Source: Actinomycetota bacterium
GTDB taxonomy: Bacteria > Actinomycetota > Actinomycetes > Actinomycetales > Microbacteriaceae
DNA length: 64,000 nucleotides
Assembly (NCBI GenBank): GCA_041180285.1
Contig: JBEGRV010000002.1
Location: 2,813 to 66,812, forward strand
Reading direction: 5' to 3'
Position numbers and translations under genes: made by a program
Notes under the pieces: model-generated
What the model was told of the DNA's origin: nothing
What the model saw: the letters and a program-made list of their open reading frames with translations, nothing else
The model's database searches: none
Shown here: positions 18,186-33,762 of the stretch, in pieces
How positions within the stretch are numbered: the stretch's first letter is position 1
Layout of the letters: every line of letters begins with the position of its first letter

Positions 18186-18186
18186 G

Positions 18187-19920
18187 TTGAGGGCTACCGC
18201 GCTGTTAATAACAACTCTAGAAAGACAGAAAATTAGATTCCCAGACCTAAACCATCCAGAGTCATCATCTACTGAGTGGTGGCGTTCAGCAGTGATCTAC
18301 CAGATCTATCCACGCAGTTTTGCCGATGCGAACGGTGATGGCATGGGTGATCTTCCGGGTATAACCAGCCGACTTGAATCGCTTGCTGCGCTAGGTATTG
18401 ATGCAATCTGGTTGTCGCCTTTCATGCGTTCTCCCCAAAAAGATGCCGGCTACGATGTCAGCGACTATCGCGACGTTGATCCCCTTTTCGGCTCTCTCCA
18501 AGATTTCGACAACATGGTTGCTCGAGCTCACGAGCTGGGGTTGAAAGTCCTGGTAGACCTTGTGCCTAACCACACCTCAGATCAGCACGCTTGGTTTAAA
18601 GCGGCATTGAAAGCAGAACCAGGTTCGGCTGAACGCGAGTTTTACCACTTCAAAGATGGCCTTGGGGCACACGGGGAGCTACCGCCAAACAACTGGCTCT
18701 CCATGTTTGGTGGGCCGGCATGGACCCGAATTATCGAGAAAAATGGAAAGCCAGGCCAGTGGTATTGCCATCTTTTTGACTCAAGCCAGCCCGATCTAAA
18801 TTGGAGCAACAGCGATGTGCAAAGGGAATTCGAGGGGATTCTCCAGTTCTGGCTCGAGCGAGGAGTTGATGGTTTTCGAGTAGATCAGCCACATGCGATG
18901 GCTAAAGCCGCTGGTCTGCCAGATCATCCGGATGTTGAAAGAGCCGGCGCCGGGTTCATCGAGGGCGAAGCAAGCCCACCTATGTGGTTCCAAGATGAAG
19001 TTCATCCCATATTTCGGCGTTGGCGAGAAATCCTGGATAGCTATCCCGGGGAACGCGCAATGTGTGGAGAAGCTTATGTTTATCCGCTCTCATTTATGGC
19101 TCAGTGGGTTAGGCCTGACGAGTTTCACCAGACTTTTAACTTTCGCTACTTAGACAGCGAGTGGAACCCTTCAAGCATCAGAGAAACCGTCAACGAATCT
19201 TTTGCAGCATTCGATTCTGTTGGAGCACCGAGCACCTGGGTACTTTCAAACCATGACATCATCAGACACCATTCCCGAATGGGTGGACTGACCGGTCGCC
19301 CGACCGCCTCAGATGGCATCGGCCCCGACGATGCCCAGCCTGACAGAGATTTAGGTTTGCGCCGCGGGCGCGGGGCAACCTTGTTCACAATGGGTCTCCC
19401 TGGCTCGATGTATTTGTACCAAGGCGAAGAGCTTGGCCTACCTGAGCACACAACTCTTGATGCCAAATACAGACAAGACCCTACCTTTTTTAGGACAGCT
19501 GGGAAAAGACTTGGCAGAGACGGTTGCCGAGTTCCACTACCTTGGGAGGCTGGAAAAGGGGCTGCAAACGGCTTCAACCAAAGTGGAAACTCCTGGTTGC
19601 CGCAGCCCGATCACTATCGCAACTATTCACGCAATCTGCAGGTCAACGATCCAGCATCTACTCTTTCTATGTATCGCCACGCGATTGAGCTGCGAAAGAA
19701 GTTACGACTCGGCTTTGGTTCGTTCGAGTGGCAAAGCGAGCCTGGAGACAAAGTCTTGGCCTACCGAAATTTAAATATTCTCATCATGCACAATTTTGGA
19801 ACAGACAATGTTCAACTGCCAGCAGGCTGCAAAATTGTGGCCGCCAGCCAGGTTAGTTACTATTCTGCGGAGCCACCGCAACTGGAACCAAACGACACAG
19901 TTTGGATCAAAGTCGACTAG
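18187..19920 (+). CDS. GH13 alpha-glucosidase, paralog 2
   Basis: Same GH13 motifs with GFRVDQPH. No ATG before WWRS; the likely start is TTG 18187, 1 nt after the upstream stop. Confidence 0.9.
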   Translation: MRATALLITTLERQKIRFPDLNHPESSSTEWWRSAVIYQIYPRSFADANGDGMGDLPGITSRLESLAALGIDAIWLSPFMRSPQKDAGYDVSDYRDVDPLFGSLQDFDNMVARAHELGLKVLVDLVPNHTSDQHAWFKAALKAEPGSAEREFYHFKDGLGAHGELPPNNWLSMFGGPAWTRIIEKNGKPGQWYCHLFDSSQPDLNWSNSDVQREFEGILQFWLERGVDGFRVDQPHAMAKAAGLPDHPDVERAGAGFIEGEASPPMWFQDEVHPIFRRWREILDSYPGERAMCGEAYVYPLSFMAQWVRPDEFHQTFNFRYLDSEWNPSSIRETVNESFAAFDSVGAPSTWVLSNHDIIRHHSRMGGLTGRPTASDGIGPDDAQPDRDLGLRRGRGATLFTMGLPGSMYLYQGEELGLPEHTTLDAKYRQDPTFFRTAGKRLGRDGCRVPLPWEAGKGAANGFNQSGNSWLPQPDHYRNYSRNLQVNDPASTLSMYRHAIELRKKLRLGFGSFEWQSEPGDKVLAYRNLNILIMHNFGTDNVQLPAGCKIVAASQVSYYSAEPPQLEPNDTVWIKVD

Positions 19921-22007
19921 GCTTTGATGTTTTTGACCGGCCACCAGAATTTCTTGCCGGTCATGAATGCCAAGGCCGGTACGATAACGGTTCGAACCAA
20001 TAGCGTGTCGAGCAGAACACCGATGCAGACAATCACGCCGATTTGAGCGAGGGCCACCAGCGGCAAAACACCAAGAACCGCAAACACGGCCGCGAGCAAA
20101 ATACCCGCTGAGGTAATCACTCCACCGGTAGCACCCAAGGCACGAACCATTCCATCGCGAGTACCCAGTTTTTCTGCTTCTTCTTTGGCTCGTGTGACAA
20201 GGAAGATGTTGTAATCAACGCCGAGTGCTACTAAGAACAGGAAGCTGTACAGGAACACACTCAGGTCTAGACCCGGGAACCCAAAGACATTCACGAACAG
20301 GAACCAGCCGGCTCCCATCGATGCAAAGAACGATGCAACCACGGTAATCAGCAGCAGCACCGGCGCAACGAAAGAGCGAAGCAAGACAATTAGCACTAAG
20401 AACACGAGTATCAAAATCAGCGGGATGACCAAGGCTTGGTCATGTGCGTAGGCTTCTTTTACCTCGAGAGCCTGAGCATCTAAACCACCGATGACCGCTT
20501 CGGCATTCGGCACTGTTGCGACGGCTTCACGCAGTTCTCGGATCATCGCGTAAACCTCTTCAGACTGACTCTCAGCATCGAACACTACGTCGATTCGAGA
20601 AATTTGCTCATTGCTTACGGCAACTGCAGCACTGTCAACTCCGCTAACAGTTTTGGCAGCCGCAACAACTTCTTCAGCAGCGTCTTTGTTTACCAAAACG
20701 TTGGTTGGTGAGGTAGAGCCGGCCGCAAACGCATCGGCCAAGACATTCTGACCAACCACGGCCTCAGGCGTTTTAAGGAAAGACTCGGTAGACGACAAAC
20801 CAATTTTGATGCCGGCCGCGCCAGAGGCGAGCACACCAAGAATCAAGATGCCTACCACTGAGATAGCAATTGGCTGCTTGCGAACACCGCGGCCCAATTT
20901 TGCCCAAAGCCCATTCTCACCCTTGTTGACAGCACCGAATTTCGGAACGAACGGCCAAAACAGCCCGCGGCCAAAGACCACCATGGCGGCAGGCAACACA
21001 ACTAGAGCGGCAACCATTGCAATTACTATTCCTGTGGCACAAACCAAACCGAGCGAACGGTTACCGGCAAGATCGGCAAAGCTGAGGGTCAGCAAGGCAA
21101 GGGTTACCGTGCTTCCCGAAGCGATAATTGCGGGGCCGGCCCCTCGCAACGCCTTGGCCATAGCCTCGTGGCGATCTTCATTGATGAAAAGCTCTTCTCG
21201 ATAGCGAGCAATCAGTAACAACGCATAGTTTGTTCCCGCACCAAAAACCAGAACCGAAAGAATTCCGGTGACTGATGCGTCAGGGGTAATTCCGAATAGA
21301 GAAGCAACTTGCCTAGCCAACTGGCCAGCCATTCCGTCGGCGGTACCGACGACCAGAAGTGGAACTAGCCATAGCCAAGGGCTGCGGTAGGTGATCAGCA
21401 GCAAGACTGCAACCACAACTACGGTTGACAACAACAGGGTGAAGTCAGCTCCCGCAAAAACTCCAGATAGGTCAGCAGAGAAGCCCTCGGGGCCGGTTAC
21501 ATAAACTTCGAGGCCTGCCGGCATACCTTCTTTTGCGAGTTGACGAATTTCGGCTACTCGCTCGGTAATTACCTCAGTTTCATCAGACTTTTCCATCGGG
21601 ATGGTGATTACAGCGGTTGACTCATCGTTGGAAAGAGTGGCTGGAGGTACAAACTTTTCACCCTCAACCTCGAGGTTTGTAAATTCGATAAATTTCTCGT
21701 TGGCACCGCCAACCACCATCTGCTTCATGGGATCAAATGCGCCCTGAACCCATACTTTTTGTTCATCTGACATTGCCGACTCAGCCGCGTAGACAATTAC
21801 TGCAGCGGTTGAATCAGCGCCGGGCAAATCTTCGGCCAGCTTGGCGGCGATTACAGATTCGGCATCATCGGGAAGCCCTACACCTGGGTTCAACTCAGTT
21901 GTTGCGGCACGCAGCGGGCCGAAGGCCAAAACGGCAAAAACTAGGCCAATTAGTAGTGTGGCCCATGCGGTTTTTTTGCCCGTGATGAAGTTGATGATCG
22001 AGTTCAC
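19917..22007 (-). CDS. MMPL/RND-family transporter
   Basis: Two-repeat architecture; FGAGTNYALLLIARYREE and LGVDYNIFL motifs. Confidence 0.92.
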   Translation of the reverse strand: MNSIINFITGKKTAWATLLIGLVFAVLAFGPLRAATTELNPGVGLPDDAESVIAAKLAEDLPGADSTAAVIVYAAESAMSDEQKVWVQGAFDPMKQMVVGGANEKFIEFTNLEVEGEKFVPPATLSNDESTAVITIPMEKSDETEVITERVAEIRQLAKEGMPAGLEVYVTGPEGFSADLSGVFAGADFTLLLSTVVVVAVLLLITYRSPWLWLVPLLVVGTADGMAGQLARQVASLFGITPDASVTGILSVLVFGAGTNYALLLIARYREELFINEDRHEAMAKALRGAGPAIIASGSTVTLALLTLSFADLAGNRSLGLVCATGIVIAMVAALVVLPAAMVVFGRGLFWPFVPKFGAVNKGENGLWAKLGRGVRKQPIAISVVGILILGVLASGAAGIKIGLSSTESFLKTPEAVVGQNVLADAFAAGSTSPTNVLVNKDAAEEVVAAAKTVSGVDSAAVAVSNEQISRIDVVFDAESQSEEVYAMIRELREAVATVPNAEAVIGGLDAQALEVKEAYAHDQALVIPLILILVFLVLIVLLRSFVAPVLLLITVVASFFASMGAGWFLFVNVFGFPGLDLSVFLYSFLFLVALGVDYNIFLVTRAKEEAEKLGTRDGMVRALGATGGVITSAGILLAAVFAVLGVLPLVALAQIGVIVCIGVLLDTLLVRTVIVPALAFMTGKKFWWPVKNIKA

Positions 22008-22083: not shown

Positions 22084-22989
22084 CTAAATCTTTGGATAGC
22101 TGACGTATGCGAATTTTGTCTCATGTGGAGACCAGCTGTTTACGTTTATGGTTCCCTGGCCACCGAAGAGCTTTACTAGGGTTTGAGGGTTACCCCAGTC
22201 TTCGCCAACCACTAAGCGCAATTCGACATCGATATTTTCTGGATGCCCTACGGTTTCGCTTGGATAGCTAAGGTAAACCCAATGTTCTCCGTCTGGCGAT
22301 TGGTGAGGAAACCAATTCACCCGGTTATCGAAGGTCAACTGTTCAAAGTCTGCGCCGCTTCGTCGAGCTCGAGCAATCTGGGCATGACCACGGCGAGTAG
22401 AAAAATGCTCGGTGTTGAAATACACCCACTCGCCATCAACCGAATACTCACAACCATCTTCTGGGCCGTCGCCATTTACCAGCGGCACTACCTCGCCACT
22501 TATGAAATCGAACAGCTGGATTCGACCGGAGCTGAAAACATCATCTGCGCCAGCGTCTAACTGAACAAAAGCAATCTCCGCTTCATTGGGGTGCACACCG
22601 TGCAGAAAGTGCAGGTGGCTCTTTGGCCCGACTGAAACAGGTTGAGTCAGCCCTCCTGAAACTGGGACTCGGTGAATGCGCCAATCGTTGTTTGTGGAAA
22701 TGTAAATCTCGGAGTGATCGGGAGACAAGACATGATCGTTGTTTAGAGGGTTCGCGCCATCCAGGTCAATCTGCCGCAATCTAGGGTTATCGGCAACATC
22801 CAATTTCCACAAAAGCCCGTTACCGTTTAGCAACAGATAGTTGTTTTTGTGCCAGTTTGGCGCCTCAAGAAGCAACTCGGTCGTAGAGAAAAGTAACCGG
22901 TCTTCACCTGTCGTAATGTCAAAAATGTGAATTTCGCACTTCTGATTCGATCCGAGTTTTCTTGTGAAGTCCCCGGTCAAGTCAGCCAT
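22084..22989 (-). CDS. TolB/PD40-like beta-propeller protein without signal peptide
   Basis: EAPNW, NNDHVLSPD, DGCEYS.DGEW, NWFPHQSPDG, QGTINVNSWSP repeats; start overlaps the upstream SDR stop. Confidence 0.8.
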   Translation of the reverse strand: MADLTGDFTRKLGSNQKCEIHIFDITTGEDRLLFSTTELLLEAPNWHKNNYLLLNGNGLLWKLDVADNPRLRQIDLDGANPLNNDHVLSPDHSEIYISTNNDWRIHRVPVSGGLTQPVSVGPKSHLHFLHGVHPNEAEIAFVQLDAGADDVFSSGRIQLFDFISGEVVPLVNGDGPEDGCEYSVDGEWVYFNTEHFSTRRGHAQIARARRSGADFEQLTFDNRVNWFPHQSPDGEHWVYLSYPSETVGHPENIDVELRLVVGEDWGNPQTLVKLFGGQGTINVNSWSPHETKFAYVSYPKI

Positions 22990-23747
22990 TAGATGTTTCG
23001 CCCACCGGAAATCTCCAGAACAATTCCGGTCAGATAGCGAGACTTATCACTGGCCAAAAAGACAACAGAATCTGCAACTTCTTCGGGTCGCCCAAAACGC
23101 CCCAATGGAATCTCAGCAAGGCGCGAGGCTTTCACATCTTCAGGCATACCGTAAAGCATGGGTGACTCGATAAGCCCTGGCTGAATCGCGTTAACTCGAA
23201 CACCCGCAAACCCGACTTCTTTGGCAGCAGCCTTGGTAAGGCCTACCATCCCAGCCTTCGCGGCACTGTAATTGGTCTGCCCAGGGTTGCCTACTTTTCC
23301 GGAAATCGAAGAAACATTGATGATTGAGCCGCCACCGTGATCTCGCATGTAATTTGCTGCGGCTCTAGTGCCCAACCAGGCACCCTTCAAATGAACATCA
23401 ATAACCAATTCGAAGTCTTCAACCGGCATCTTTCGCATGGTCGCGTCTTTGGTGAGTCCAGCGTTATTTACCCAGACATCTAGTGCGGCAAATTTTTCGT
23501 TAGCAAGCGAAACAATTTTGTCGGTGTCATCTGCGCTAGTTGCATTAGCAACTACTGACAAGGTTCGGTCCGGCTGACCGAGTGCTTTTTCCAAATCTGC
23601 CAATCTTTCGGCACTCAGATCGGTGAGCACAAGCTTTGCGCCTTCTGCTAAAAACGCCTCTGCCATGGCTTTGCCGAGCACACCTCCGGCACCTGTGATT
23701 ACTGCAACTTTGTTGCTCAAAAGACCATTCGAAAAAGACTCAGCCAA
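22989..23747 (-). CDS. SDR, 3-oxoacyl-CoA/ACP reductase (mycobacterial FabG2-like)
   Basis: TGAGGVLG, NNAG, DATMRKM, GQTNYSAAK; GGAGG RBS before TTG 23747. Confidence 0.88.
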   Translation of the reverse strand: MAESFSNGLLSNKVAVITGAGGVLGKAMAEAFLAEGAKLVLTDLSAERLADLEKALGQPDRTLSVVANATSADDTDKIVSLANEKFAALDVWVNNAGLTKDATMRKMPVEDFELVIDVHLKGAWLGTRAAANYMRDHGGGSIINVSSISGKVGNPGQTNYSAAKAGMVGLTKAAAKEVGFAGVRVNAIQPGLIESPMLYGMPEDVKASRLAEIPLGRFGRPEEVADSVVFLASDKSRYLTGIVLEISGGRNI

Positions 23748-24474
23748 AGTAGCTACCTCCGTTTGCATGCAGCGTCTGCCCGGTAAACGCTGAACTCTCA
23801 TCGCTTATCAAGAAATTGATTGCCGAGACTACTTCGCTCGAATCCAAGAAACGACCGACTAACATTTGGGTCAAAATGCGCTCACGGTTTTCTGGGGTCA
23901 GAGAATCAGTCATCGGAGTTGCAGTCGCTCCAGGAGCCACCGTATTCACACGAATTTTGTATTCGGCAAGCTCGCGTGCGTAAGAACGCACCATTCCCAG
24001 CAGAGCCGCCTTTGAAGTCGAGTAAGCACCTCTGCCCATCAACCCACCGCCGTTGAACGCCGCCACGCTACCCAAAACGACAATCGAACCCTGTACTTGG
24101 TTCTTGACCATGGTTCTTGCGACAGAAGCTACAACATTGTGCACTCCAACCACATTTACCCCGATGACTTTCGAAAACTCGTCTCCAGAGATGTCGATAA
24201 GTTTGGCCTGGGAAACAATTCCAGCAGACACCACTAGCCCAGTTATTGGCTGCACGGCCGCAAGTTTCTGAATCTCTAGATCGACCAAATCGTGCTTGGT
24301 AACGTCAAGCACCAAACCTTGATGCCCACTCCCAGGCAATGCCTCAGCTTCCACGAGAGTATTTGGGTTGAGGTCTATGATGGAAATCCGGGCGCCCTGT
24401 GCGGCCAAAGTTTTTGCGGTTGACAGCCCGATTCCGGATGCGCCACCTGAAATTACTACGTGTCGATTGTTCAA
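23740..24474 (-). CDS. SDR-family NAD-dependent oxidoreductase
   Basis: SGGASGIG, acidic D after beta-2, YSTSK catalytic motif, NTVAPG; GGGAG RBS before TTG 24474. Confidence 0.88.
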   Translation of the reverse strand: MNNRHVVISGGASGIGLSTAKTLAAQGARISIIDLNPNTLVEAEALPGSGHQGLVLDVTKHDLVDLEIQKLAAVQPITGLVVSAGIVSQAKLIDISGDEFSKVIGVNVVGVHNVVASVARTMVKNQVQGSIVVLGSVAAFNGGGLMGRGAYSTSKAALLGMVRSYARELAEYKIRVNTVAPGATATPMTDSLTPENRERILTQMLVGRFLDSSEVVSAINFLISDESSAFTGQTLHANGGSYFG

Positions 24475-24484
24475 TTTATCTCCC

Positions 24485-25474
24485 TTAGATAATCGCAAGT
24501 GCGTTGGCCGGACTTCCCACTCCGCCTCGAATGTTGAGCGGTTCTGCAGTAATAAAACAGTCAAATCGTCCGCTTTCGCGAAGTCGCGATGCTAGCTCGT
24601 CTAAAACCCACAGCTCACCGATGGTTATTCCAAGCAGAGGAATCAAGATTCGATGCAGCATGCCTGTGTGGCTTGAAAGCTCAAAATTGCCTGACTTTTC
24701 AGCATTGGTCGGAAGAGCATTGCGGTTGGCAGGCCATGCCTCGAGTGCAACGTTATCGGCTGCAGCCACTGCAATTTGATGGTCCCATAGCCATTCAGCG
24801 ATTGATTCGTCTTGTGCTAAACCAGGAGATTGCAATACAGAGCCGCGCGCCGCTTTACCGGAGAGAATTGCGCCTAGCCAACCAGTTCGAATCATCAGAA
24901 TGTCGCCAGGCAAAACTGAGGACTTTTGAAAATTACAGGTGGCTTCCAAATCGTCAACCGAAATCTGCTCTGCAGTTTCTTGATTGATTGGTTGGCCAAT
25001 TGATTCGCGGTATGCGGCCACGTCGAGAAGAAGTCCGCGTCCGGCAATGCCTTTGTGTGCAACGTTTTGAATACCCAACGCCTCGGTACCAGCGGTCAGA
25101 AGCTCGCCCGAGAAGCCGTTGTAGAACCCCTTGTCTGGGTGAGCAAAGTGACGAAGGCTGTCAATCTGTGTCGAAGCCTGCAGAAATAGGTTGTCTATTC
25201 GATCGTCGCGGTGATAGACGTTTGTGCCAAAAACTTCATGTTTTGGCACTCCGCGGTGCGCAATTAGGGGTGGGTCAAAAGCGTCAAGTGAAAGATTCAA
25301 GTTCACTGTTAGACCCGTTTTGATGCTGCCTCTAGCAGCTAACAAACGCTCTGGGGTGAGCTGGTTGAGAGTGCCCAATTGGTCATTCTCGCCAAAAACA
25401 CCCCAGGCGTTTGGGTAAAGCTCGCCCGAATCAACTGGAAGTTCCCGATATTTAGGAATCGATTTTTCAGGCAT
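24485..25474 (-). CDS. Cyclase-family (kynurenine formamidase fold) metal hydrolase
   Basis: WGVFGENDQLGTLN, QASTQIDSLRH metal motif variant, GDILMIRTGW, ADN, IGELW, GGVGSPAN. Confidence 0.88.
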   Translation of the reverse strand: MPEKSIPKYRELPVDSGELYPNAWGVFGENDQLGTLNQLTPERLLAARGSIKTGLTVNLNLSLDAFDPPLIAHRGVPKHEVFGTNVYHRDDRIDNLFLQASTQIDSLRHFAHPDKGFYNGFSGELLTAGTEALGIQNVAHKGIAGRGLLLDVAAYRESIGQPINQETAEQISVDDLEATCNFQKSSVLPGDILMIRTGWLGAILSGKAARGSVLQSPGLAQDESIAEWLWDHQIAVAAADNVALEAWPANRNALPTNAEKSGNFELSSHTGMLHRILIPLLGITIGELWVLDELASRLRESGRFDCFITAEPLNIRGGVGSPANALAII

Positions 25475-25490
25475 TGTTGATTTTTAGGCT

Positions 25491-25937
25491 CTAGGCCTGG
25501 TCCATGACCTGGTGAATCTCAATCATGTTGCCAGCAGGGTCGGTCAAGAAGATTTGGTACCAACCCTTAACCGACCAGATACCCCAGTCGTCAAAAGGAA
25601 TTCCGTTTTCGGTAAGAGTTGCCTTGACCTCTTCAATGTTGTCGGTACGGAAGGCGAAGTGTCCGCCAATAAGTGGGTTGACAGAGTGACCTTCTAGCAA
25701 GGCCAAGTAAGGCTGGCGCTGAGTGACGTGAATCTGAAGCTCGTTTGGGTCGCCAGCCTCGAAGAATTTGGCTGCGTCATCCCATTCAGCGTCACCATCG
25801 GTTGAGCCGCTAGATGCGGTGGCAATCATTTCCGGGCTTGGAATTTTCGAGAGCCCTAGAGCTTTTTCGTAGAAAGCTACGAGTGAAGCCATGTGATCTG
25901 AGGTCACGTTTACGTGGTGAAGTCTTAGTGAAGCCAT
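25491..25937 (-). CDS. VOC (glyoxalase/bleomycin-resistance/dioxygenase) family metalloprotein
   Basis: LHHVN, QIHV, GHFAF, FLTDPAGNMIEI; GAAAGGA RBS. Confidence 0.88.
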   Translation of the reverse strand: MASLRLHHVNVTSDHMASLVAFYEKALGLSKIPSPEMIATASSGSTDGDAEWDDAAKFFEAGDPNELQIHVTQRQPYLALLEGHSVNPLIGGHFAFRTDNIEEVKATLTENGIPFDDWGIWSVKGWYQIFLTDPAGNMIEIHQVMDQA

Positions 25938-25985
25938 TAGTGATTCCTTTCGAGTACTGCGAGTTTGCCATAACCATCTGCTATT

Positions 25986-26031
25986 AGTCCAATACCTAAT
26001 AGCTAATTTTTTATGTAGTTTTTAGTGATCA
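25986..26031 (-). promoter_or_regulatory. LysR-dependent promoter copy 1 (VOC operon)
   Basis: ATTAGGTATTGGACT on the minus strand at 26000-25986, AT-rich upstream box, candidate -10 CAAACT 18 nt downstream. Confidence 0.7.
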
Positions 26032-26954
26032 ATAGGGAGCTTGTCACTGGTCGAAATCGACGTTGGCGGTTTAGGAAAGATATCTTCGGCGACCTCAACC
26101 ACGGCTAACACAGCTGTGGACTTGCTTTCAGCGCTCCAGGCAATCGCCGATTGCAACCGCGGCAAATCTCCGCGAATTGGAAGGTAAGTTACGCCAGGTT
26201 GGTTGATGTTCGACGTCGAAGAGAACGCTATAGATACGCCTTGCCCTGCCGCGACCATCGCGTGAATTGTGTAAGAGTCTGGTGCCTCCTGAACCACTCG
26301 CGGGTTGAAGCCCGCATCCCAACAGACCTTATTGGTGATAGCTCTCAGAGTCGATCCGGCATCTCGAGGAAAAGTAACAAACGGCTGGTCGGCCAAATCC
26401 GCAATTGCCACGTAGGGTCGTGCGGCTAGCTCATTGGCAGTTGAAACGACGCACACCAGCGTTTCTTCTTCAATCGCCCGATAAGCCAACCCCGGAAGAT
26501 TAAAGGGCAGGCGTACGAAGCCAAGATCAATTTCCCCTCTCGCGACGGCTTCCTGAGCGGCATTTGCGTAGAGATTTCCCTGTAGTTGCAGTTCGATGTT
26601 TGGATACCTGGTCTTAACCTCCCGAGCTAGGAGTGGCAAAAGATGGCGAGTTGCAGCTCCAGCAAAACCAATTCGAACTCGTCCAAACATTCCTGAACCA
26701 CTCGCCTTGGCTGCCAGCTCGGCTTCTTCCATGGCAGAAATGACAGTCCGTGCATGCTTCAGCAACGCTTCGCCTGCAGACGTCAATTCGACAGATCGGG
26801 TTGTACGCAGAAAAAGCTTTACCCCGAGTTGCTCTTCAATTAATCGAATCTGTTGACTCAGCGGAGGTTGCGCCATGTGTAGGCGACTAGCTGCGCGCCC
26901 AAAATGCAGTTCCTCCGCTACCGCGACAAATAGTTTTAGCTGCCTAATCTCCAT
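26022..26954 (-). CDS. LysR-family regulator (CatR/BenM-like)
   Basis: VAEELHFGRAASRLHMAQPPLSQQIR..LFLRTTRSVELT; divergent from the CoA-transferase/cycloisomerase operon. Confidence 0.94.
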   Translation of the reverse strand: MEIRQLKLFVAVAEELHFGRAASRLHMAQPPLSQQIRLIEEQLGVKLFLRTTRSVELTSAGEALLKHARTVISAMEEAELAAKASGSGMFGRVRIGFAGAATRHLLPLLAREVKTRYPNIELQLQGNLYANAAQEAVARGEIDLGFVRLPFNLPGLAYRAIEEETLVCVVSTANELAARPYVAIADLADQPFVTFPRDAGSTLRAITNKVCWDAGFNPRVVQEAPDSYTIHAMVAAGQGVSIAFSSTSNINQPGVTYLPIRGDLPRLQSAIAWSAESKSTAVLAVVEVAEDIFPKPPTSISTSDKLPIDH

Positions 26955-26963
26955 ATCCCAAAC

Positions 26964-27032
26964 CTATTAGAAAAACCTAAATAATAAAAAGCAAATTAGG
27001 TATTGGACTTGGCTGAATTTTTTGCCGATACT
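26964..27032 (+). promoter_or_regulatory. LysR-dependent promoter copy 2 (CoA-transferase operon)
   Basis: ATTAGGTATTGGACT at 26995-27009, upstream T-N11-A box, candidate -10 GATACT 17 nt downstream. Confidence 0.7.
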
Positions 27033-27066
27033 GGCATAGTTCGCATCCGAAAACCAGGAGGTTAGC

Positions 27067-28023
27067 TTGAGTAATCAAAGTGAAAGCAACCGCACATCCA
27101 AAGTGATGTCGATGTCTGATGCCATTGCAAAGTACGTTTTCAGCGGGGCAACGGTCGCAATCGAAGGATTCACACACGCTATTCCTACAGCAGCAGGTCA
27201 CGAAATTATTCGCCAAGGCTTCAAAGACCTGACTTTGGTAAGACAAACCGCCGACATCGTGGTGGACCAGATGCTCGCAGGTGGGTGCATCAGTACGCTG
27301 GTCTCCTCGTTCGTTGGAAACTCTTCGGCTGGCTCTCTGGGGGAGATCCGCAGGCGAATTGAAGACTCCGATCCCGTGAAGCTTAATTTCGTTGAATACA
27401 GCCACTACGGAATGGTTTGCCGCTATCTTGCTGGCGCTCAGAAGCTACCTTTCTATCCGCTCAAATCTTTTTTTGGAAGCGACCTACCAAAAATTAATCC
27501 GGAGATTAGAAAAGTCACCTCCCCATACCCAAACTCGGACGGCGGGTTTGATGAAATTTATGTTGTTCCCGCGATTAATCCAGACGTGACAATCGTTCAT
27601 GCTCAGCGCGCAGACCAATGGGGAAATATCCAAATGTGGGGCCTCACCGGGTTGCAGGCAGAGGCTGTTTTCGCGGCCAAAAATGCCATCGTCACAGTTG
27701 AAGAAATTGTTTCCGATGAGGTAGTCCGATCAGATCCAAACCGCACAATCATTCCTGCACATGCCGTATCAGCGGTGGTAGAGGTGCCATTCGGAGCCCA
27801 TCCTTCTTTCACGCAGGGCTATTACGACCGCGATAATGCTTTTTACCGCGAATGGACCGGCATCAGCGGCGAGAAAGAATCGATTCAAAACTGGCTTAAG
27901 ACGTGGGTATACGGCACAAAAAACCACGCCGAATATGTGGCTTTGATGTCGGAAGAGACGAAACAACGGCTCGAGGTAGGGGAAGCGATGAGCCTTCCAA
28001 TTAACTACGGTTCAAGGCTATGA
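27067..28023 (+). CDS. CoA-transferase subunit A (glutaconate / 3-oxoadipate CatI type)
   Basis: EGFTHAIP.AAGHEIIRQ, IVHAQRADQWGN, TVEEIV, GAHPS..GYYDRDN; AGGAGG RBS. Confidence 0.9.
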   Translation: MSNQSESNRTSKVMSMSDAIAKYVFSGATVAIEGFTHAIPTAAGHEIIRQGFKDLTLVRQTADIVVDQMLAGGCISTLVSSFVGNSSAGSLGEIRRRIEDSDPVKLNFVEYSHYGMVCRYLAGAQKLPFYPLKSFFGSDLPKINPEIRKVTSPYPNSDGGFDEIYVVPAINPDVTIVHAQRADQWGNIQMWGLTGLQAEAVFAAKNAIVTVEEIVSDEVVRSDPNRTIIPAHAVSAVVEVPFGAHPSFTQGYYDRDNAFYREWTGISGEKESIQNWLKTWVYGTKNHAEYVALMSEETKQRLEVGEAMSLPINYGSRL

Positions 28024-28808
28024 GTGAGGTCAATATGGAAACTCAAACAAATTTTTCAATCGATGAGTTACTTACCGTCACCGCGGCACGCGCACTGGCC
28101 GGTAAGAATGTAGTCTTTGCGGGCATCGGTTTGCCAACACTTGCCGTATCTCTTGCGCAAGAGACCACCTCACCCAACATTGAGGTCATCTATGAATCAG
28201 GTGTATGCGGCGCGCACCCGTCAGCACTTCCAGCAACTATCGCAGACTCGGTGCTAATCACCGGATCAGAAGCGGTGCTGAATTTGGCAGCGCTATTTGG
28301 CTATGTCCTCCAGGGTGAGCGAATCGACGTTGGCTTCTTGGGTGCCGCCCAAATCGATAAATTTGGAAACCTGAACTCCTCGGTAATCGGTGACTGGCAC
28401 AATCCGAAGAAGCGACTACCTGGTTCGGGCGGAGCACACGAGGTGCTGGCCAACGCCCGCGAAACATTTGTAATTATGCGCCGGCACACAAAACGATCGT
28501 TTGTGACCGAATGCGACTTCATCACATCAGCATCACCAGATCGCGCTATCGCTGAGGGTGCCAGATCAAACGCCAAGGGAGTTACCCGGGTATTTACCCA
28601 ATTTGGAGTTTTGGCCCGCGAAAACGTCGGAGAAGAGTTGATCTTGACCGGAATTCACGCCGGCGTAGACGTTGCCGAGGTCATAGCCGAAACCGGCTGG
28701 GACCTCAAAGTGAGCCCAAATTTGGAAATACTGCCGGTGCCTACCCAGGCAGAACTCGAGCTGCTACGAAATGAAATAGACCCCAACGGAATGTACCTGA
28801 GGCCATAA
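28020..28808 (+). CDS. CoA-transferase subunit B (glutaconate / 3-oxoadipate CatJ type)
   Basis: FAGIGLP, IYESG (catalytic Glu), DVGFLGAAQIDKFGNLN, RLPGSGG; ATGA overlap with subunit A. Confidence 0.9.
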   Translation: MSEVNMETQTNFSIDELLTVTAARALAGKNVVFAGIGLPTLAVSLAQETTSPNIEVIYESGVCGAHPSALPATIADSVLITGSEAVLNLAALFGYVLQGERIDVGFLGAAQIDKFGNLNSSVIGDWHNPKKRLPGSGGAHEVLANARETFVIMRRHTKRSFVTECDFITSASPDRAIAEGARSNAKGVTRVFTQFGVLARENVGEELILTGIHAGVDVAEVIAETGWDLKVSPNLEILPVPTQAELELLRNEIDPNGMYLRP

Positions 28809-28810
28809 GT

Positions 28811-29911
28811 ATGATCATCAAATCAATTGAAGTTATTCCATACGCAATCGATTACAAAAAACCACTTAAATTTGCAAGCGGAATGGTTAACGTGGCCGAT
28901 CACGTGCTACTAAAACTTGTCACCGAAGATGGCGTAGTTGGTTATGCAGACACACCACCGCGACCCTACACCTACGGCGAGACCCAAGGCTCGATCGTCT
29001 CAGTAATCGAAACGCTATTTGCACCAAAGTTGGTGGGTCTCAAACTAACCGACGCCGAAAGAATTCGAGAAGTTTTGCACAAAACCATCGGAAACGACGC
29101 AGCCAAAGGCGCAATTGATATCGCTATCTGGGACGCACTCGGCAAAACACTAGAGTTACCGGTTCACCAACTACTTGGCGGGTATGCAAACAGCCTAAAG
29201 GTTTCACACATGCTCGGCTTTGACGAACCAGCTGTGGTTCTTGATGAGGCACTTTCAATGCGGGAGCAGTATGGCATCAACGCATTCAAAGTCAAGGTCG
29301 GCAGGTCCCCAGCAAAGCTGGATCTAGCAATCTGCAAGGCACTTCGTGATGGCCTGGGCGATAGTGCCGACATTTATGTCGACGCAAATCGTGGCTGGAC
29401 TGCAAATGAAGCTTTGGCTGCACTACCAGCCCTTATGGACGCTGGAATTAGCACCTTTGAAGAGCCATGCGATGCCAAAGACGCAATGGGGCGACGGGAA
29501 CTAGTCAAGAAATCGCTTATCCCGATTGTTGGCGATGAGAGTGTTCCTACCCCAGGTGATGTATCTCGTGAACTGCTTTCAGGCGGATGCACCGCGATCA
29601 GCATAAAAACGGCCCGCGGTGGCTTCTCAAATGCCACTCGAGTCTTAGACCTATGCGAGGGCCTCGGCGTTGAGGTAATGATTGGCAATCAGATCGACAC
29701 TCAAATCGGAACTGCAGCCTCGCTTGCGTTTGGCGCGGCAAAAAAAGCAACCACCAAAAAAGCTGCAGAGCTGTCTAACTTCCTTGACATGGCCGACGAC
29801 TTGGTCGCTGAACCACTGACGATTGCCAATGGTGAAATGCGAGTTTCGGCGCTACCTGGGGTAGGCGTTGAAATCGATTTAGAAAAACTCGAGCGATACC
29901 GACTTCGTTAG
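28811..29911 (+). CDS. Muconate cycloisomerase-like enolase-superfamily enzyme (Mycobacterium smegmatis anti-MLE type)
   Basis: KPLKFASG, PPRPYTYGETQ, VSHMLGF, FKVKVG, DAN, EEP, DES, ISIKTAR, GNQID, ELSNFLDM closely recall the M. smegmatis MLE. Confidence 0.85.
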   Translation: MIIKSIEVIPYAIDYKKPLKFASGMVNVADHVLLKLVTEDGVVGYADTPPRPYTYGETQGSIVSVIETLFAPKLVGLKLTDAERIREVLHKTIGNDAAKGAIDIAIWDALGKTLELPVHQLLGGYANSLKVSHMLGFDEPAVVLDEALSMREQYGINAFKVKVGRSPAKLDLAICKALRDGLGDSADIYVDANRGWTANEALAALPALMDAGISTFEEPCDAKDAMGRRELVKKSLIPIVGDESVPTPGDVSRELLSGGCTAISIKTARGGFSNATRVLDLCEGLGVEVMIGNQIDTQIGTAASLAFGAAKKATTKKAAELSNFLDMADDLVAEPLTIANGEMRVSALPGVGVEIDLEKLERYRLR

Positions 29912-29915: not shown

Positions 29916-30602
29916 TTAATTTAGGAATTCTGCAACCAGGTCAAAGATCACTTCTGGAGCTTCCTCGACTAAGTCATGCCCAAATGGAACTTTCTTGGTT
30001 ATCCAGTCAGGTCTCTGGCTGAGCTCTTCATAAATCGGTTTGAACGGGCTCAACATTGCAGGGTTGTGAAAGTACTCTTCGGCAAAGACATAAAGTTTTT
30101 TGGGACCACTAAAAATAGCCTCGTCGTAGTTCAATGGTTGCAAAATCGTCCCTAACGGGTGCGGCATCAACCTTGGTCTAATAGCTTTGAAGCCTGGGTC
30201 TGGGTATGAATTTAGGCCATCAAATGCAGAAGCCAGAAAACCGTTTCTGAAATCATCATCGATTAGATCCCAAAGTCGCTGGCCAGGTTTGGGCAAAATT
30301 GCATCTAGGTAAATCAACCCCGAAACCTTTGCAGCCGTTTTAGCTGCTACCCCGGTGCTAACCATGCCTCCATAGCTGTGTGCTAAAAGCACCACATCTT
30401 CGAGTGAATTTTTTTCGATTATCTCTAAAACATCATTTATGTGAGTGTCGAGATTTACCGGACCATCAGTTGGGTTTTCATGGTCAAGCCCACTCAGGCT
30501 CGGTGCATACACACGGTGACCCAGATCACGAAGTCGATCAGAAATCGGATCGAACCACCAACCGCCGTGACCGCTTCCCGCAATCATTACTAAATTTGCC
30601 AT
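29916..30602 (-). CDS. Alpha/beta hydrolase (methyl/aryl esterase-like)
   Basis: HGGWW, AHSYGG nucleophile elbow, YLDAILP.PG, GHD. Confidence 0.85.
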   Translation of the reverse strand: MANLVMIAGSGHGGWWFDPISDRLRDLGHRVYAPSLSGLDHENPTDGPVNLDTHINDVLEIIEKNSLEDVVLLAHSYGGMVSTGVAAKTAAKVSGLIYLDAILPKPGQRLWDLIDDDFRNGFLASAFDGLNSYPDPGFKAIRPRLMPHPLGTILQPLNYDEAIFSGPKKLYVFAEEYFHNPAMLSPFKPIYEELSQRPDWITKKVPFGHDLVEEAPEVIFDLVAEFLN

Positions 30603-31783
30603 TAGATCAGCTCCTTTGCCGGCTGCTTTCTCAATAACAATAACGAAGTGGCGGCAAGCAGGTAGACGACTGCTATAAAAATTGAGAGTGATTCCGAGCT
30701 AGTTCCTACCAAAACAGTAATCAGCGCAATAGAAAGAGCGCCTGAGGCCGAGGAAATCAAACCGAGAAGGCCCGCGGCTGTGCCTGAAGTTTTACCCTGG
30801 TTTTGCATGGCTACCGCGGTGCTGGTCGGCGAGATGAACCCAACAGCAGCGAAACAAATAAATAGCCCGATTTCAAACAAAACAAAATTCGATGGAAAGA
30901 CCGCAGAGACCAGAAAGGACATAGCTGCAAGTGCTGCGACCTGGATACCAATTTTGTAGGTTGCCAAAGTTTTATAGCGCTTTATCAGCGCCTTATTGAG
31001 AAAGCTTGCCCCTAATAAACCGAGCCCGTTGAAAACCAGGAGAAGGCTGAACTGTTCGGCGCTCAACCCAAAATCAATTTGAGCTGCAAACGAGCCGGTA
31101 GAAAGATAGCCGAACAACCCGGCTGTCGTAAAAGCGCTCCCGATTAGCCCTGCGATGAAATTTCGATCTTTGAACGCATTTGTCCATCCAGAAGTAATCC
31201 CGGAAAGATTAAATTTTACGCGCCTTTCCTGGGGCAAGGTTTCTGGAATGCCTAGGTATGCAGCGACAAAAATTACTGCGGAAACGGCAGCCAGAAAGAT
31301 AAAGATCCCCCTCCAGTCAGCCACCAATAAAAGTAATCCACCAATCGCCGGGGCAATGATTGGAGCAATGCTCTTAACAATCATCAGCGACGAGTAGATG
31401 CGAGCTGAAGTATCACCAAAAGTAGAATCACGAACCATCGCCATTGTCACCGTCATTCCGGTGGCCGCCGAGAAACCTTGGATAAATCTCAAGACCAGTA
31501 TGAAGCCGAGATTTCCAGCTACTGCTATCAAAATCGAGGACAAAAAGTAGCCAAAAATTGAGACCAAAATCAGCGACCGCCGCCCTTTTGAATCACTGTA
31601 TGGGCCGGAGACAAACATTCCCGCAATCATTCCGACGAGGTTTATGAAGATGGTCATTTGTATGCCAGCTTCTGAACTTCCAAGATCTTTTGCCATCTCT
31701 GGCATAGCTGCGATGTAGGTGTCAAAAGTGAATGGGCCAAGCATTTGCAAAGCACCAAGCAGCAGGACAGTTTGTTTTCTCAT
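30602..31783 (-). CDS. Bcr/CflA-family MFS transporter
   Basis: D.YI.AMP.MA.DLG, GPYSDSKGRR, RFIQG, APIIAPAIGG, PETLP. Confidence 0.9.
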   Translation of the reverse strand: MRKQTVLLLGALQMLGPFTFDTYIAAMPEMAKDLGSSEAGIQMTIFINLVGMIAGMFVSGPYSDSKGRRSLILVSIFGYFLSSILIAVAGNLGFILVLRFIQGFSAATGMTVTMAMVRDSTFGDTSARIYSSLMIVKSIAPIIAPAIGGLLLLVADWRGIFIFLAAVSAVIFVAAYLGIPETLPQERRVKFNLSGITSGWTNAFKDRNFIAGLIGSAFTTAGLFGYLSTGSFAAQIDFGLSAEQFSLLLVFNGLGLLGASFLNKALIKRYKTLATYKIGIQVAALAAMSFLVSAVFPSNFVLFEIGLFICFAAVGFISPTSTAVAMQNQGKTSGTAAGLLGLISSASGALSIALITVLVGTSSESLSIFIAVVYLLAATSLLLLRKQPAKELI

Positions 31784-31874
31784 TTAAATGAAACTCCAGA
31801 AATCGGTCTGCAACACGGTAGCAGACAACTGCATCCAACTTTCTACTAAACTGCAACTCCTGTACTAAGCAAAG

Positions 31875-33002
31875 GTGCCGACTATGGAGCTCACCCACTC
31901 ATTTACAGAGGCTGATTATTCTCAGGTTCTCGAAATCTTCAAACAGATCAACCCTGATGAAAAAAAATCACAGTTGGTTATAAAGGTCAAAGGTAAAACG
32001 GTAATTGATCTTGCGGCGGGCGTTAGCCCTGACAATTTGACAACTGTCTTTTCAGTTAGTAAGGCACTGTCTGGGTTGGCCATTGCAAAACTAGTTGGTG
32101 ACGGCTTACTAAATCTTGACGAAAAAATGGCGCACTATTGGCCTGAATTTGCGGCTGAAGGAAAGGCTGATCTAACTGTTCGTCAAGTACTCAGCCATCA
32201 AGCTGGATTGACTGCAACCCATCCTCAACTTTCTGAGGACCAAGTACATCACGACCACGCCGCTGCCGCAGCGCTTGCAAAACAGAAGCCTCTGTGGAGA
32301 CCCGGTAGCGGTTTTGGATATCACGGTCTAACCATTGGCCCACTCATGAGTGAGCTTTGCTTCAGAATCACCGGAAAGACGATTCAACAATATTACGATG
32401 CTGAGATTCGCAAGCCTGCCAACGCAGATGCTTACCTAGGGCTCCCAGAAGAACTGGAGCACCGCGTAACGGAGCTCGATCTCTCTGCAATTCCGATGAG
32501 CACTGAGAGACAAAAACAGTTTGCCCGGCCCGCCGATTACCATTCAAGTGGTTTGGCTGAATGGAGCAAAGGCACAATTAGCTTCGATTTTCTTACCGGT
32601 CGTGAGGGTCGAGCTTTTGGCCTACCTTCTGCAGCCGGCGTGGCCTCAGCCCGAGGCCTGACTGATGTAATGCAGTGGGCGGTTGGCTTCGGCTCGAATT
32701 CAAGTGGTGTGCCTACTCGGGTGCTCGAAGACATGTCGCAGCAGCAGGTGTACGGTTACGATCTTGCTCTGGAAGTTGACCACAGAGCGTTCGGCACCGT
32801 ATTTCAGAAACCTACTTCAAGTCTTCCATTTGGCTCTTACGCAGCATTCGGCCACGACGGTGCCGCAGGCGCCCTACTGTACGCAGACCCCCAGGGTGAA
32901 ATCGTGCTCGGCTATACGGTTGCCAAGTTCGTTGCTCCAGGTGGTTTCGATAGGGATTTGCAACCGATTATTGACACCGTGAGAAGAATTGCAAATAGCT
33001 AG
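31875..33002 (+). CDS. Serine hydrolase, beta-lactamase/class VIII esterase family
   Basis: FSVSK (SxxK), LSHQAG, GYH, FGHDGAAG. Confidence 0.88.
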   Translation: MPTMELTHSFTEADYSQVLEIFKQINPDEKKSQLVIKVKGKTVIDLAAGVSPDNLTTVFSVSKALSGLAIAKLVGDGLLNLDEKMAHYWPEFAAEGKADLTVRQVLSHQAGLTATHPQLSEDQVHHDHAAAAALAKQKPLWRPGSGFGYHGLTIGPLMSELCFRITGKTIQQYYDAEIRKPANADAYLGLPEELEHRVTELDLSAIPMSTERQKQFARPADYHSSGLAEWSKGTISFDFLTGREGRAFGLPSAAGVASARGLTDVMQWAVGFGSNSSGVPTRVLEDMSQQQVYGYDLALEVDHRAFGTVFQKPTSSLPFGSYAAFGHDGAAGALLYADPQGEIVLGYTVAKFVAPGGFDRDLQPIIDTVRRIANS

Positions 33003-33649
33003 TTTGTAATTCGTAAGTTCGAGAAATAAGCTTCACTGCCAATGTCGACTCGCAGACCTACGCGTCCTGATGTTGTTTTGCAAAGTGAACCAATTACCTC
33101 AAGCGACTTATCGCCATTTACGTAAGCAATTACACCCGCCTCACTCACGTCAAGACGTAACGTAACCCACTCGTTGAGCCCGAGATTAGCGGCTGCTTCG
33201 TAAACTCCTGGAAAATTTTCGCGAAGGTAATCGAATTTGGCGTCGGGAAACGCAAAATACTGGATTCCGCGTTCATTTCTCGGGGCTGGTGGATTTTCTT
33301 TAAGTCCGTTTGTGCCACGGATGTATACAGATTCGAAATTCTTAATATCTTCATCGATGTGGTACGCCAGACCTGAAAATCCGCGGTCTTCGGGCGTTGC
33401 ATCCGGAGCAAGCACTGTGTAGATGTCAACCTCGAGAGTGCCGGTAGAAAATTCAATTGGAAGCAAAACAAAATTTTCGGTGTCAATGTAATCAACATTT
33501 GCGACACCATTTGTTCTGATGTCACTTGGCAGCGCCACCCACAGGCAGTCGCGGCCATCAAAACTACGTGGCTCAGCCACAACCTTGCTAAGTACAGATC
33601 CGGCTGGCAGCACATCTAGTTTTAATTCGGTCAATTTACTCTTCTCCAA
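32999..33649 (-). CDS. Hypothetical protein, probable concanavalin/DUF1080-like beta-sandwich
   Basis: FSTGTLEVDI, FESVYIR, EWVTLRLDV, GRVGL.V, YFSNLRI pattern; family call is inference. Confidence 0.6.
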   Translation of the reverse strand: MEKSKLTELKLDVLPAGSVLSKVVAEPRSFDGRDCLWVALPSDIRTNGVANVDYIDTENFVLLPIEFSTGTLEVDIYTVLAPDATPEDRGFSGLAYHIDEDIKNFESVYIRGTNGLKENPPAPRNERGIQYFAFPDAKFDYLRENFPGVYEAAANLGLNEWVTLRLDVSEAGVIAYVNGDKSLEVIGSLCKTTSGRVGLRVDIGSEAYFSNLRITN

Positions 33650-33762
33650 AACTGTTCAAAAGAACTACAAATCGACTCATACGCTATCGGATGTGAGTTA
33701 GCAAAACTGATAAAACCGGCTAAGTTCTGAGTTTTGAGGCCGTGTTAAAGAACTAAATGTGA

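Follow-up and report, generated by a model that had tools for sequence, protein, structure and literature searches.

Results

Organization of the locus

The locus described here lies in a 64,000-nucleotide stretch (hereafter the window) of contig JBEGRV010000002.1 (assembly GCA_041180285.1), from an actinobacterium of the Microbacteriaceae. It comprises nine open reading frames (ORFs) between positions 22084 and 29911 which encode a beta-propeller, two short-chain dehydrogenases (SDR1 and SDR2), a PF04199 cyclase-family protein, a VOC-family protein, a LysR-type regulator, the two PF01144 subunits of a CoA-transferase (CoAa and CoAb), and an enolase-superfamily protein of the MR_MLE type that is a homologue of muconate-lactonizing enzyme (MLE) (Table 1). 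The ORF list of the window, together with Pfam, NCBIfam and Protein Data Bank (PDB) matches, puts all nine genes where an earlier sequence-only reading of this DNA had placed them and confirms the families that it named. The tight coupling that it described is also there: with starts supported by ribosome-binding sites, the gaps and overlaps within each operon run from -8 to +16 nt. VOC and cyclase are separated by 16 nt and cyclase and SDR1 by about 10 nt, SDR1 and SDR2 overlap by 8 nt and SDR2 and the propeller by 1 nt; on the other side, CoAa and CoAb overlap by 4 nt and CoAb is followed by the MLE gene after 2 nt. The likely start of SDR1 is the TTG at 24474 behind AAGGGAG (the frame is open up to 24564), that of SDR2 is the TTG at 23747 behind ACGGAGG (open up to 23801), and CoAa starts with a TTG behind CCAGGAGG. 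The picture of a lysR gene set between two outward-reading operons was right as to the two operons, but lysR itself is read on the leftward strand, upstream of VOC. As it has the same orientation as the leftward genes and lies 5' of VOC, the leftward unit has its own promoter in the 84-nt spacer between lysR and VOC.

Table 1. Genes and promoter elements of the locus, in window coordinates.
Feature	Position	Strand	Remarks
TolB/PD40-like beta-propeller, 301 aa	22084..22989	-	Last gene of the leftward operon; no Pfam match; PDB 2ojh, E=1.6e-51
SDR2, FabG-like; proposed 3-hydroxyacyl-CoA / 3-oxoacyl dehydrogenase	22989..23747	-	Pfam adh_short_C2, 1.3e-58; NCBIfam FabG NF004198
SDR1, second short-chain dehydrogenase	23740..24474	-	Pfam adh_short_C2, 2.4e-47
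PF04199 cyclase-family protein, Q-x3-Q-x-D-x3-H subfamily; proposed metal-dependent lactone/ester hydrolase	24485..25474	-	Pfam Cyclase, 1e-14; PDB 5IBZ
VOC metalloenzyme, 148 aa; proposed isomerase/epimerase-type step	25491..25937	-	Pfam Glyoxalase, 7.2e-9; candidate ligands H8, H70, H93, E140
Promoter/operator core ATTAGGTATTGGACT of the VOC operon	25986..26000	-	TTGGAC is a -35-like hexamer; within an interrupted palindrome
LysR-type regulator	26022..26954	-	Pfam HTH_1 and LysR_substrate; divergent from the CoA-transferase operon
Second copy of the core ATTAGGTATTGGACT, upstream of the CoA-transferase operon	26995..27009	+	GATACT 18 nt downstream
CoA-transferase subunit A (CoAa), glutaconate type, family I	27067..28023	+	PF01144, 3.2e-25; PDB 1poi_A (GctA), 8.6e-47
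CoA-transferase subunit B (CoAb)	28020..28808	+	PF01144, 3e-29; PDB 1poi_B, 1.4e-33
MLE homologue (anti-MLE family), paralogue outside the cat-operon CatB clade	28811..29911	+	Pfam MR_MLE_N/C; PDB 3dg3

A promoter core shared by the two operons

The 15-nt core ATTAGGTATTGGACT has exactly two exact occurrences in the window, each directed into its operon, so that the promoter core which the sequence-only reading had seen before both operons is confirmed as an exact match. By chance, about 0.10 matches would be expected in the window even with two mismatches allowed. The likeness between the two sites extends over 38 nt at 76%, and in the assembled genome of the host the extended motif is present only at these two sites. 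Since TTGGAC stands 18 nt upstream of a -10-like hexamer, the core probably merges a -35 element with a putative activator site. In addition, the left-hand core is embedded in a perfect interrupted palindrome (CTATTAG-N8-CTAATAG, 25980-26003) that directly follows the lysR stop codon; the right-hand copy has no second palindrome arm. This palindrome may be an additional LysR site or an RNA hairpin at the 3' end of lysR.

The motif is also found in other genomes. ATTnnGTATTGGAC precedes both operons in eight of them, namely that of the window, the freshwater relatives L009, L010 and L103, the metagenome contig L095, Agrococcus (L089) and both Rhodococcus loci (L011 and L013), and these same seven loci outside the window carry the core motif upstream of VOC. 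In four more (Streptomyces, with two species of 70% GC, Saccharopolyspora and Paenarthrobacter) it stands upstream of the CoA-transferase operon, which adds L091, L093, L094 and L096 to the loci with ATTnnGTATTGGAC upstream of CoAa. A motif shared by both operons across genomes is strong comparative evidence that the two form one regulon, and together with synteny it supports the earlier view of a co-regulated, conserved unit.

The LysR protein of the window is 51-80% identical to the LysR paired with the orthologous CoA-transferase in other genera (54% even to the Streptomyces and Saccharopolyspora counterparts), as against 35-41% to CatR of Arthrobacter cat operons, and it scores far below the NCBIfam cut-offs for CatM (116.9 bits; cut-off 580) and BenM (121.5 bits; cut-off 600). 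The earlier CatR-type assignment of the regulator is not borne out by any of these comparisons. Judged from these identities, LysR tracks the CoA-transferase and not MLE, even in the Streptomyces loci that have no MLE.

Conservation of the cluster across genera

LysR, CoAa/CoAb, VOC, cyclase and SDR2 recur with 50-86% identity in nine loci: the window, L009, L010, L103, Rhodococcus sp. Leaf278 and IEGM 1330 (in a different gene order), Agrococcus carbonis, Paenarthrobacter (L094), and the large Joint Genome Institute (JGI) metagenome contig L095. The conserved co-occurrence of VOC, cyclase, MLE and CoA-transferase, which the sequence-only reading had proposed as a check, is thus found in several actinobacterial genera, with MLE in eight of the nine full clusters. 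Three loci (L010, L089 and L094) have, within the cluster or next to it, a gene for a PcaF-like thiolase whose best match is to 3-oxoadipyl-CoA thiolase models, and the sole PcaF-like thiolase of the host genome (on contig C5) is 69% identical to that of L010.

The dehydrogenases are part of this pattern. SDR2 scores 305.8 bits on the FabG model NF004198, above the cut-off of 296, and has orthologues of 54-78% identity in all eight full clusters compared. SDR1 is present in the window, L009, L010, L095 and L103, and is replaced by a zinc-dependent alcohol dehydrogenase (Zn-ADH) resembling threonine dehydrogenase (Tdh) in L011, L089 and L094. Where either is found, their distribution is complementary; L013 shows neither.

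The propeller behaves otherwise. Outside the window it is present, at the same position, in L103 alone (62% identity, against 90% for MLE), and it is absent from L010, where genes for an IclR regulator and a thiolase stand in its place, and from the Rhodococcus, Agrococcus and Paenarthrobacter clusters. A Microbacterium homologue stands alone, and the best solved relative, 2ojh, is the uncharacterised protein Atu1656. The propeller, which had been counted in the co-regulated catabolic set, is not a conserved member of the cluster; it is a lineage-specific addition, and we rejected it as a conserved pathway lactonase on the grounds of its restriction to the window and L103 and its solitary occurrence in Microbacterium.

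The cluster MLE is a paralogue outside the cat-operon clade

The best solved relative of the MLE homologue is 3dg3 (E=2.8e-128, 431 bits, gap-free across residues 3-364), the experimentally and structurally characterised muconate-lactonizing enzyme (anti-MLE) of M. smegmatis. The resemblance to this enzyme noted before is thereby confirmed, and the assignment as an anti-MLE-family muconate cycloisomerase homologue is supported by the two-domain MR_MLE architecture and by the catalytic residues, which are invariant in the alignment with relatives and with 3dg3: the KxK motif (K160/K162), the metal ligands D191, E217 and D242, and K266 at the end of strand 6. The capping-loop motifs FASG and PPRPYTYGETQ are likewise invariant, and common to cat-operon CatBs and the cluster MLE.

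The family is not divergent in the sense first proposed. In 70 of the 80 loci retrieved with MLE homologues of 59-82% identity, catC and/or catA adjoin the gene, typically as catR-catB-catC-catA in Arthrobacter and relatives, which makes the anti-MLE family the ordinary CatB of Micrococcales. What is unusual, from the tree, is rather the place of the window copy in a paralogous group. In a maximum-likelihood phylogeny, 75 cat-type sequences form one clade (SH-aLRT 100), outside of which fall the MLEs of the window, L009, L010, L064, L011 and L013, and the Agrococcus protein. Two Rhodococcus genomes (G001 and G002) carry both types, a catB-catA-catC copy with 57-58% and a cluster copy with 63-65% identity to that of the window. 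The position outside the cat clade and this coexistence indicate that the cluster MLE is a paralogue set in a genomic context of its own.

No more than six positions discriminate the clades (V190, A204, P206, L208, G270 and A302). We considered whether they are the sign of a larger pocket and rejected this, as 3dg3 carries the residue of the cluster group at three of them (V190, A204 and A302). Hence there is no sequence argument for a different substrate, and activity on muconate or a close analogue would be the default expectation.

A glutaconate-type CoA-transferase

The YESG motif of CoAb aligns with IVESG of GctB. The catalytic glutamate, which is lacking at this position in the decarboxylase AibB, is therefore kept, and the pair is predicted to be a true transferase of the glutaconate type (GctAB-like). 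It had been read as CatIJ, which is not borne out: the scores are 45.9 bits on pcaI_scoA (cut-off 128.5) and 56.4 bits on pcaJ_scoB (cut-off 243.55) in NCBIfam. Its orthologues (60-72% identity) are always divergently paired with a LysR gene, whose product is 42-59% identical to that of the window. In Streptomyces they are accompanied by a PaaH-like 3-hydroxyacyl-CoA dehydrogenase, a thiolase, MaoC and a carboxylate importer of the major facilitator superfamily (MFS), and in Saccharopolyspora by an acyl-CoA dehydrogenase (ACAD) and a hydratase. The orthologue is rare, with 3 occurrences in 400 sampled genomes of the class; in 400 sampled genomes of the phylum, the matches are mostly paralogues of 40-58% identity. 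The phylum-level count takes in two unpublished genomes (G125 and G093), on which none of our conclusions depends.

A proposed cyclase-family hydrolase and a small VOC family

The cyclase-family protein matches one solved protein, 5IBZ (E=4.1e-37). Its motif LQASTQIDSLRH aligns with LQGSTQWDALSH of 5IBZ, so that Q-x3-Q-x-D-x3-H replaces H-x3-H-x-D-x3-H; QASTQIDSLRH and, at the substrate site, the downstream histidine and the glutamate of IGE(L/I)W all align, as in the esterase subfamily. The trans-dienelactone hydrolase of Pseudomonas reinekei MT1 opens butenolides directly after a muconate cycloisomerase. This enzyme has the same Gln-x3-Gln-x-Asp-x3-His motif, and 5IBZ is MGS0169, a Mn2+-stimulated carboxylesterase in which the motif residues are essential (PMC5341072). 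We propose that the cyclase-family protein of the window is a metal-dependent lactone or ester hydrolase.

A 493-504-aa protein is recurrent beside the cluster in soil actinobacteria (L094:7220-8701 and L011:4357-5871). In Paenarthrobacter (L094) it matches the model for Nramp divalent-metal transporters with 403 bits; the Rhodococcus copy (L011), 55% identical to that of L094, has no Pfam match. This neighbour may supply Mn2+ to the Mn-stimulated esterase-type enzyme.

VOC is the most conserved protein of the cluster (69-86% identity across genera). In 50 relatives, two of the candidate ligands (H8 and H70) are invariant and the other two (H93 and E140) nearly so. The family is small, with 340 representatives among 1.84 billion proteins. 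The AlphaFold2 model (pLDDT 93 with a 50-sequence alignment, 65 with 10 sequences) has the closed single-chain arrangement of methylmalonyl-CoA epimerases, which are its nearest folds (TM 0.60-0.64, about 20% identity). No methylmalonyl-CoA epimerase match was returned for the sequence by NCBIfam models or the PDB sequence search, and a look-up in the ESM Atlas gave generic VOC names only. Metal-assisted proton transfer on a thioester or lactone would fit this model. The search of representative proteins also showed five giant proteins of 1,300-2,600 aa with 9-14 stretches matching the VOC family.

Canonical beta-ketoadipate genes in the host and its relatives

The host genome is a 1.10-Mb metagenome-assembled genome of 63 contigs, 69.7% complete. 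Its contig C5 carries a full canonical protocatechuate branch in the order pcaC, pcaD, pcaB, pcaG, pcaH, IclR-type regulator, pobA (C5:38842-44791, which is L003:6843-12792), and, about 10 kb from this set, pcaI, pcaJ and the PcaF-like thiolase (C5:27588-30085, with the pcaI/pcaJ-type genes at 27588-28813). In this 69.7% of the genome there is no match to catC (PF02426), and the only PF00775 intradiol dioxygenase matches are pcaHG. The sequence-only reading had held that the four genes catA, catC, pcaD and pcaF elsewhere in the genome, if joined to a lack of conserved linkage or co-induction of the leftward operon, would speak against a variant route. As to the genes, half of this is the case: pcaD and pcaF, with pcaIJ, are present on C5, but catA and catC were found neither here nor in two relatives.

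These close relatives (G004 and G005, 1.1-1.2 Mb), which carry the same cluster, have no PF00775 dioxygenase, no catC and no pcaD above cut-off, nor any PF01144 transferase besides that of the cluster. The cluster cannot depend on the classical pathway there, since the canonical genes are missing. A complete protocatechuate branch would in itself not have been expected of so small a genome (about 1.1-1.6 Mb), and pcaHG are lacking from G004 and G005.

It is very improbable that the locus has no pathway link at all and is a remnant of a catechol-branch operon (catR-catB plus a transferase) lying by chance beside unrelated oxidoreductase genes. The canonical pcaIJ, pcaF and pcaD elsewhere in the genome would agree with such a remnant, as would the fact that the MLE family is the usual CatB. 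However, both operons are syntenic across genera despite their rearranged order, the promoter motif is common to eight genomes, MLE is a distinct paralogue found alongside catBAC, and the transferase is not of the PcaIJ type. The MLE tree, the synteny and the shared motif thus already contradict it.

Neighbouring genes and variant loci

The cluster is flanked (16476-22007 and 29916-35487) by two genes of the GH13 alpha-amylase family, an MMPL transporter, an alpha/beta hydrolase, a Bcr/CflA-type efflux MFS protein, a beta-lactamase-family esterase, a 3-keto-disaccharide-hydrolase-domain protein and a GH3 glycosidase. L103 has these same flanking genes, and L095 some of them. The MFS gene adjoining MLE was considered as a muconate importer and rejected, as it is of the Bcr/CflA efflux type. 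Near the Agrococcus cluster, an ABM-domain protein (L089:2154-2465) has the fold class of muconolactone isomerase.

Variants were seen at other loci. A distant one on two Logan metagenome contigs (L099 and L100; L099:8001-14657) has LysR, an SDR, MLE (52% identity), cyclase and a 292-aa tandem VOC-VOC fusion, together with a hydroxyacid dehydrogenase, a 505-aa protein without Pfam match and a YCII-domain protein, the latter a dimeric alpha+beta barrel, which is again the fold class of muconolactone isomerase. In L101 (GCA_050246775.1, L101:5778-11338), a VOC homologue of 51% identity to that of the window (46% by tblastn) lies between an old yellow enzyme (OYE) ene-reductase and an AEC-family transporter, near genes for a metallo-beta-lactamase-fold hydrolase, SDRs, LysR, a CoA-ligase, a transferase, ACAD and enoyl-CoA hydratase (ECH); this looks like a functionally analogous set from different enzyme families. 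A reduced variant in Rhodococcus sp. NPDC127593 (L064, 6300-11100) has an SDR-like gene, VOC (70%), LysR (47%), MLE (60%) and a cyclase-like gene that is divergent (28% identity), in a stretch (7078-8175) that contains a stop codon. No Gct-type transferase is present within 10 kb, and the catABC genes of this genome use a different, classical CatB type (29% identity).

Discussion

In this study, we have examined a catabolic gene cluster that is conserved but rare and whose substrate is uncertain. From the comparative evidence, the cluster and its regulon are well supported; the chemistry is putative. The probable function of the cluster is to channel a six-carbon diacid or lactone to 3-oxoadipyl-CoA by a route not yet described, and the earlier suggestion of a variant pathway by way of lactones, redox reactions and CoA esters is in our judgement the most economical reading. 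To its fuller form, in which a lower pathway complete in itself converts C6 acids of the muconate or muconolactone type to 3-oxoadipyl-CoA without CatC and PcaD, we give a probability of about 45%. The enzyme classes are those of the genes present; from them we infer the substrate and the order of steps.

In this pathway, the CatB paralogue would lactonize an imported cis,cis-muconate-like diacid to a butenolide, and the Gct-type transferase would load CoA on the one free carboxylate of the lactone (or, in a free-acid variant, on the ring-opened keto-acid). As muconolactone has a single free carboxylate, transfer of CoA to it would give a 3-acyloxy-acyl-CoA. The Q-Q-D-H cyclase, as a metal-dependent esterase, would open the lactone to a 3-hydroxy-4-enoyl-CoA, the methylmalonyl-CoA-epimerase-like VOC would contribute a proton-shift (isomerase) step, and the FabG-like SDR2 with SDR1 (Zn-ADH in other genera) would perform the alcohol-to-ketone and C=C redox reactions, which would be redox-neutral in sum. 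The product would be 3-oxoadipyl-CoA or a close analogue, cleaved to acetyl-CoA and succinyl-CoA by the PcaF-like thiolase, which is encoded on contig C5 here and within the cluster in other genomes. LysR would act at the ATTnnGTATTGGAC core common to both promoters. A stricter version, unlikely as it stands, is a CoA-dependent butenolide pathway in which muconolactone, made by the CatB paralogue or imported, would be thioesterified by the glutaconate-type transferase, and the lactone-CoA processed by VOC and the Q-Q-D-H lactonase and then by the dehydrogenases to 3-oxoadipyl-CoA. It would open muconate-type diacids to streamlined freshwater actinobacteria with no need of a ring-cleavage dioxygenase, CatC or PcaD.

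The same enzymes could also serve a free-acid route by non-orthologous replacement, with VOC in place of CatC, the cyclase-family hydrolase in place of PcaD/CatD and the Gct-type transferase in place of CatIJ, the SDRs being peripheral and acting, for example, on hydroxylated analogues. VOC and hydrolase always co-occur, and do so with MLE in eight of the nine full clusters; in modified ortho pathways that are already known, metal-dependent hydrolases such as trans-dienelactone hydrolase take the place of alpha/beta-fold lactonases; the VOC homologue of L101 lies beside a metallo-beta-lactamase-fold hydrolase; and PcaF-like thiolases are linked to the cluster. Nevertheless, we consider this route decidedly unlikely. 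SDR2 is in every full cluster and translationally coupled, so that it is hardly peripheral, and a free-acid route leaves it unexplained. Most clusters also retain a second dehydrogenase, either SDR1 or Zn-ADH (L013 has neither), the closest folds to that of VOC are of enzymes with CoA-thioester substrates, and the host genome already has PcaD and PcaIJ.

Several points weigh against the self-contained muconate pathway that we favour. Either CoA transfer or lactone opening could come first, and the fold of VOC, at 20% identity to methylmalonyl-CoA epimerase, leaves its role in the model unfixed. MLE scores 201.1 bits on TIGR02534 (muconate/chloromuconate cycloisomerase), below the cut-off of 334.95, although this model may be skewed to proteobacterial syn-MLEs. 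The window holds neither catA, as a source of muconate, nor a dedicated uptake transporter, and a completeness of 69.7% leaves the absence of catA and catC from the genome unproven. In L095 there is no MLE within 10 kb, so that MLE may be an optional entry step to a core that could act on another lactone or acid. Finally, the soil clusters carry genes for a Tdh-like ADH, an L-threonate-dehydrogenase-like protein, IlvD/Edd and LacI, which would fit a non-aromatic polyhydroxy acid.

Because one cluster has no MLE and soil clusters have sugar-acid-type genes, we regard a different, non-aromatic substrate as a serious if doubtful rival. The compound would be a hydroxy or unsaturated dicarboxylate, or a lactone, of the C5-C6 range; adipate, glutaconate, 2-hexenedioate and a sugar-acid or plant/algal lactone are candidates. 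MLE would then be either shifted in specificity or an accessory entry enzyme. Glycoside hydrolases neighbour the cluster in the window, LysR is not CatM/BenM-like, and the module of CoA-transferase and LysR occurs without MLE, VOC and cyclase, beside genes for ACAD, MaoC, PaaH-like proteins, thiolase and carboxylate importers. On the other hand, MLE is found in all full clusters but one and keeps the capping-loop motifs of cat-operon CatBs, it differs between the clades at few positions, half of them shared with 3dg3, and the hydrolase subfamily includes a butenolide-hydrolysing member.

If the muconate pathway is correct, it would be a third way for lower ortho-cleavage, next to the classical route through CatC and PcaD and the one through maleylacetate. 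The VOC family, which is small and highly conserved, and the esterase branch among cyclase-family proteins would each gain a function, and the pathway would offer, as a model system for enzyme evolution, a case of context-driven functional divergence of a CatB paralogue in the enolase superfamily. Freshwater actinobacteria of 1.1-1.2 Mb without a ring-cleavage dioxygenase, such as G004 and G005, could then consume ring-fission products from other organisms or from photochemistry. The cross-genus promoter motif serves as a handle on the membership and the inducer of this regulon. In the searchable literature, neither this gene set nor a hydrolase or CoA route for muconolactone was seen to be described.

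Comparison with known systems

Based on our results, the cluster belongs neither to the catechol branch, nor to the route of P. reinekei MT1, nor to the methylmuconolactone pathways. With the catechol branch (CatR-CatB-CatC-CatA, then PcaD, PcaIJ and PcaF) it shares a LysR regulator, an anti-MLE cycloisomerase 57-65% identical to the CatBs of catRBCA operons and, as a probable end point, thiolysis of the 3-oxoadipyl-CoA type. Unlike that branch, it has no CatA or CatC, its MLE is outside the cat clade, its transferase is of the GctAB type, its regulator is not CatM/BenM-like, and VOC, the Q-Q-D-H hydrolase and two dehydrogenases are added. In the mml methylmuconolactone pathways of Cupriavidus and Pseudomonas, a LysR regulator, a two-subunit CoA-transferase, a metal hydrolase and a thiolase handle a lactone that is refractory to the classical isomerase and hydrolase, which is similar in outline; the enzymes of the cluster are from other families (Gct-type, PF04199, VOC). 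No domain of the type of MmlI (4-methylmuconolactone methylisomerase) or MmlJ (methylmuconolactone isomerase) was detected in the cluster genes by the Pfam scan, no search aimed at those families having been made. In Rhodococcus rhodochrous N75, 3-methylmuconolactone is CoA-activated before ring opening, by a 65-kDa synthetase and not by a transferase. The 4-chlorocatechol/chlorosalicylate route of MT1, with muconate cycloisomerase, trans-dienelactone hydrolase and maleylacetate reductase, is likened to the cluster by motif: a cycloisomerase is followed by a PF04199 metal lactone hydrolase with Gln-x3-Gln-x-Asp-x3-His (PMC5341072), and then by redox enzymes that lead to 3-oxoadipate. The cluster differs in having no dioxygenase, in the CoA-transferase and VOC being integral to it, and in its actinobacterial hosts; no maleylacetate reductase of the iron-dependent ADH type was recognised among its genes.

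Two of the proteins can be compared with solved or well-defined relatives. GctAB of Acidaminococcus fermentans (1poi) is the best solved relative of both transferase subunits, and the catalytic glutamate of its ESG motif is conserved, but the setting here is aerobic actinobacterial catabolism under LysR control, with MLE and beta-oxidation-type partners. VOC is like methylmalonyl-CoA epimerase in its size (148 aa), its closed single-chain two-module fold and the close positions of its His/(Gln-x-)His/His/Glu ligands. Unlike it, with about 20% identity and no match at the sequence level, VOC constitutes a separate small family.

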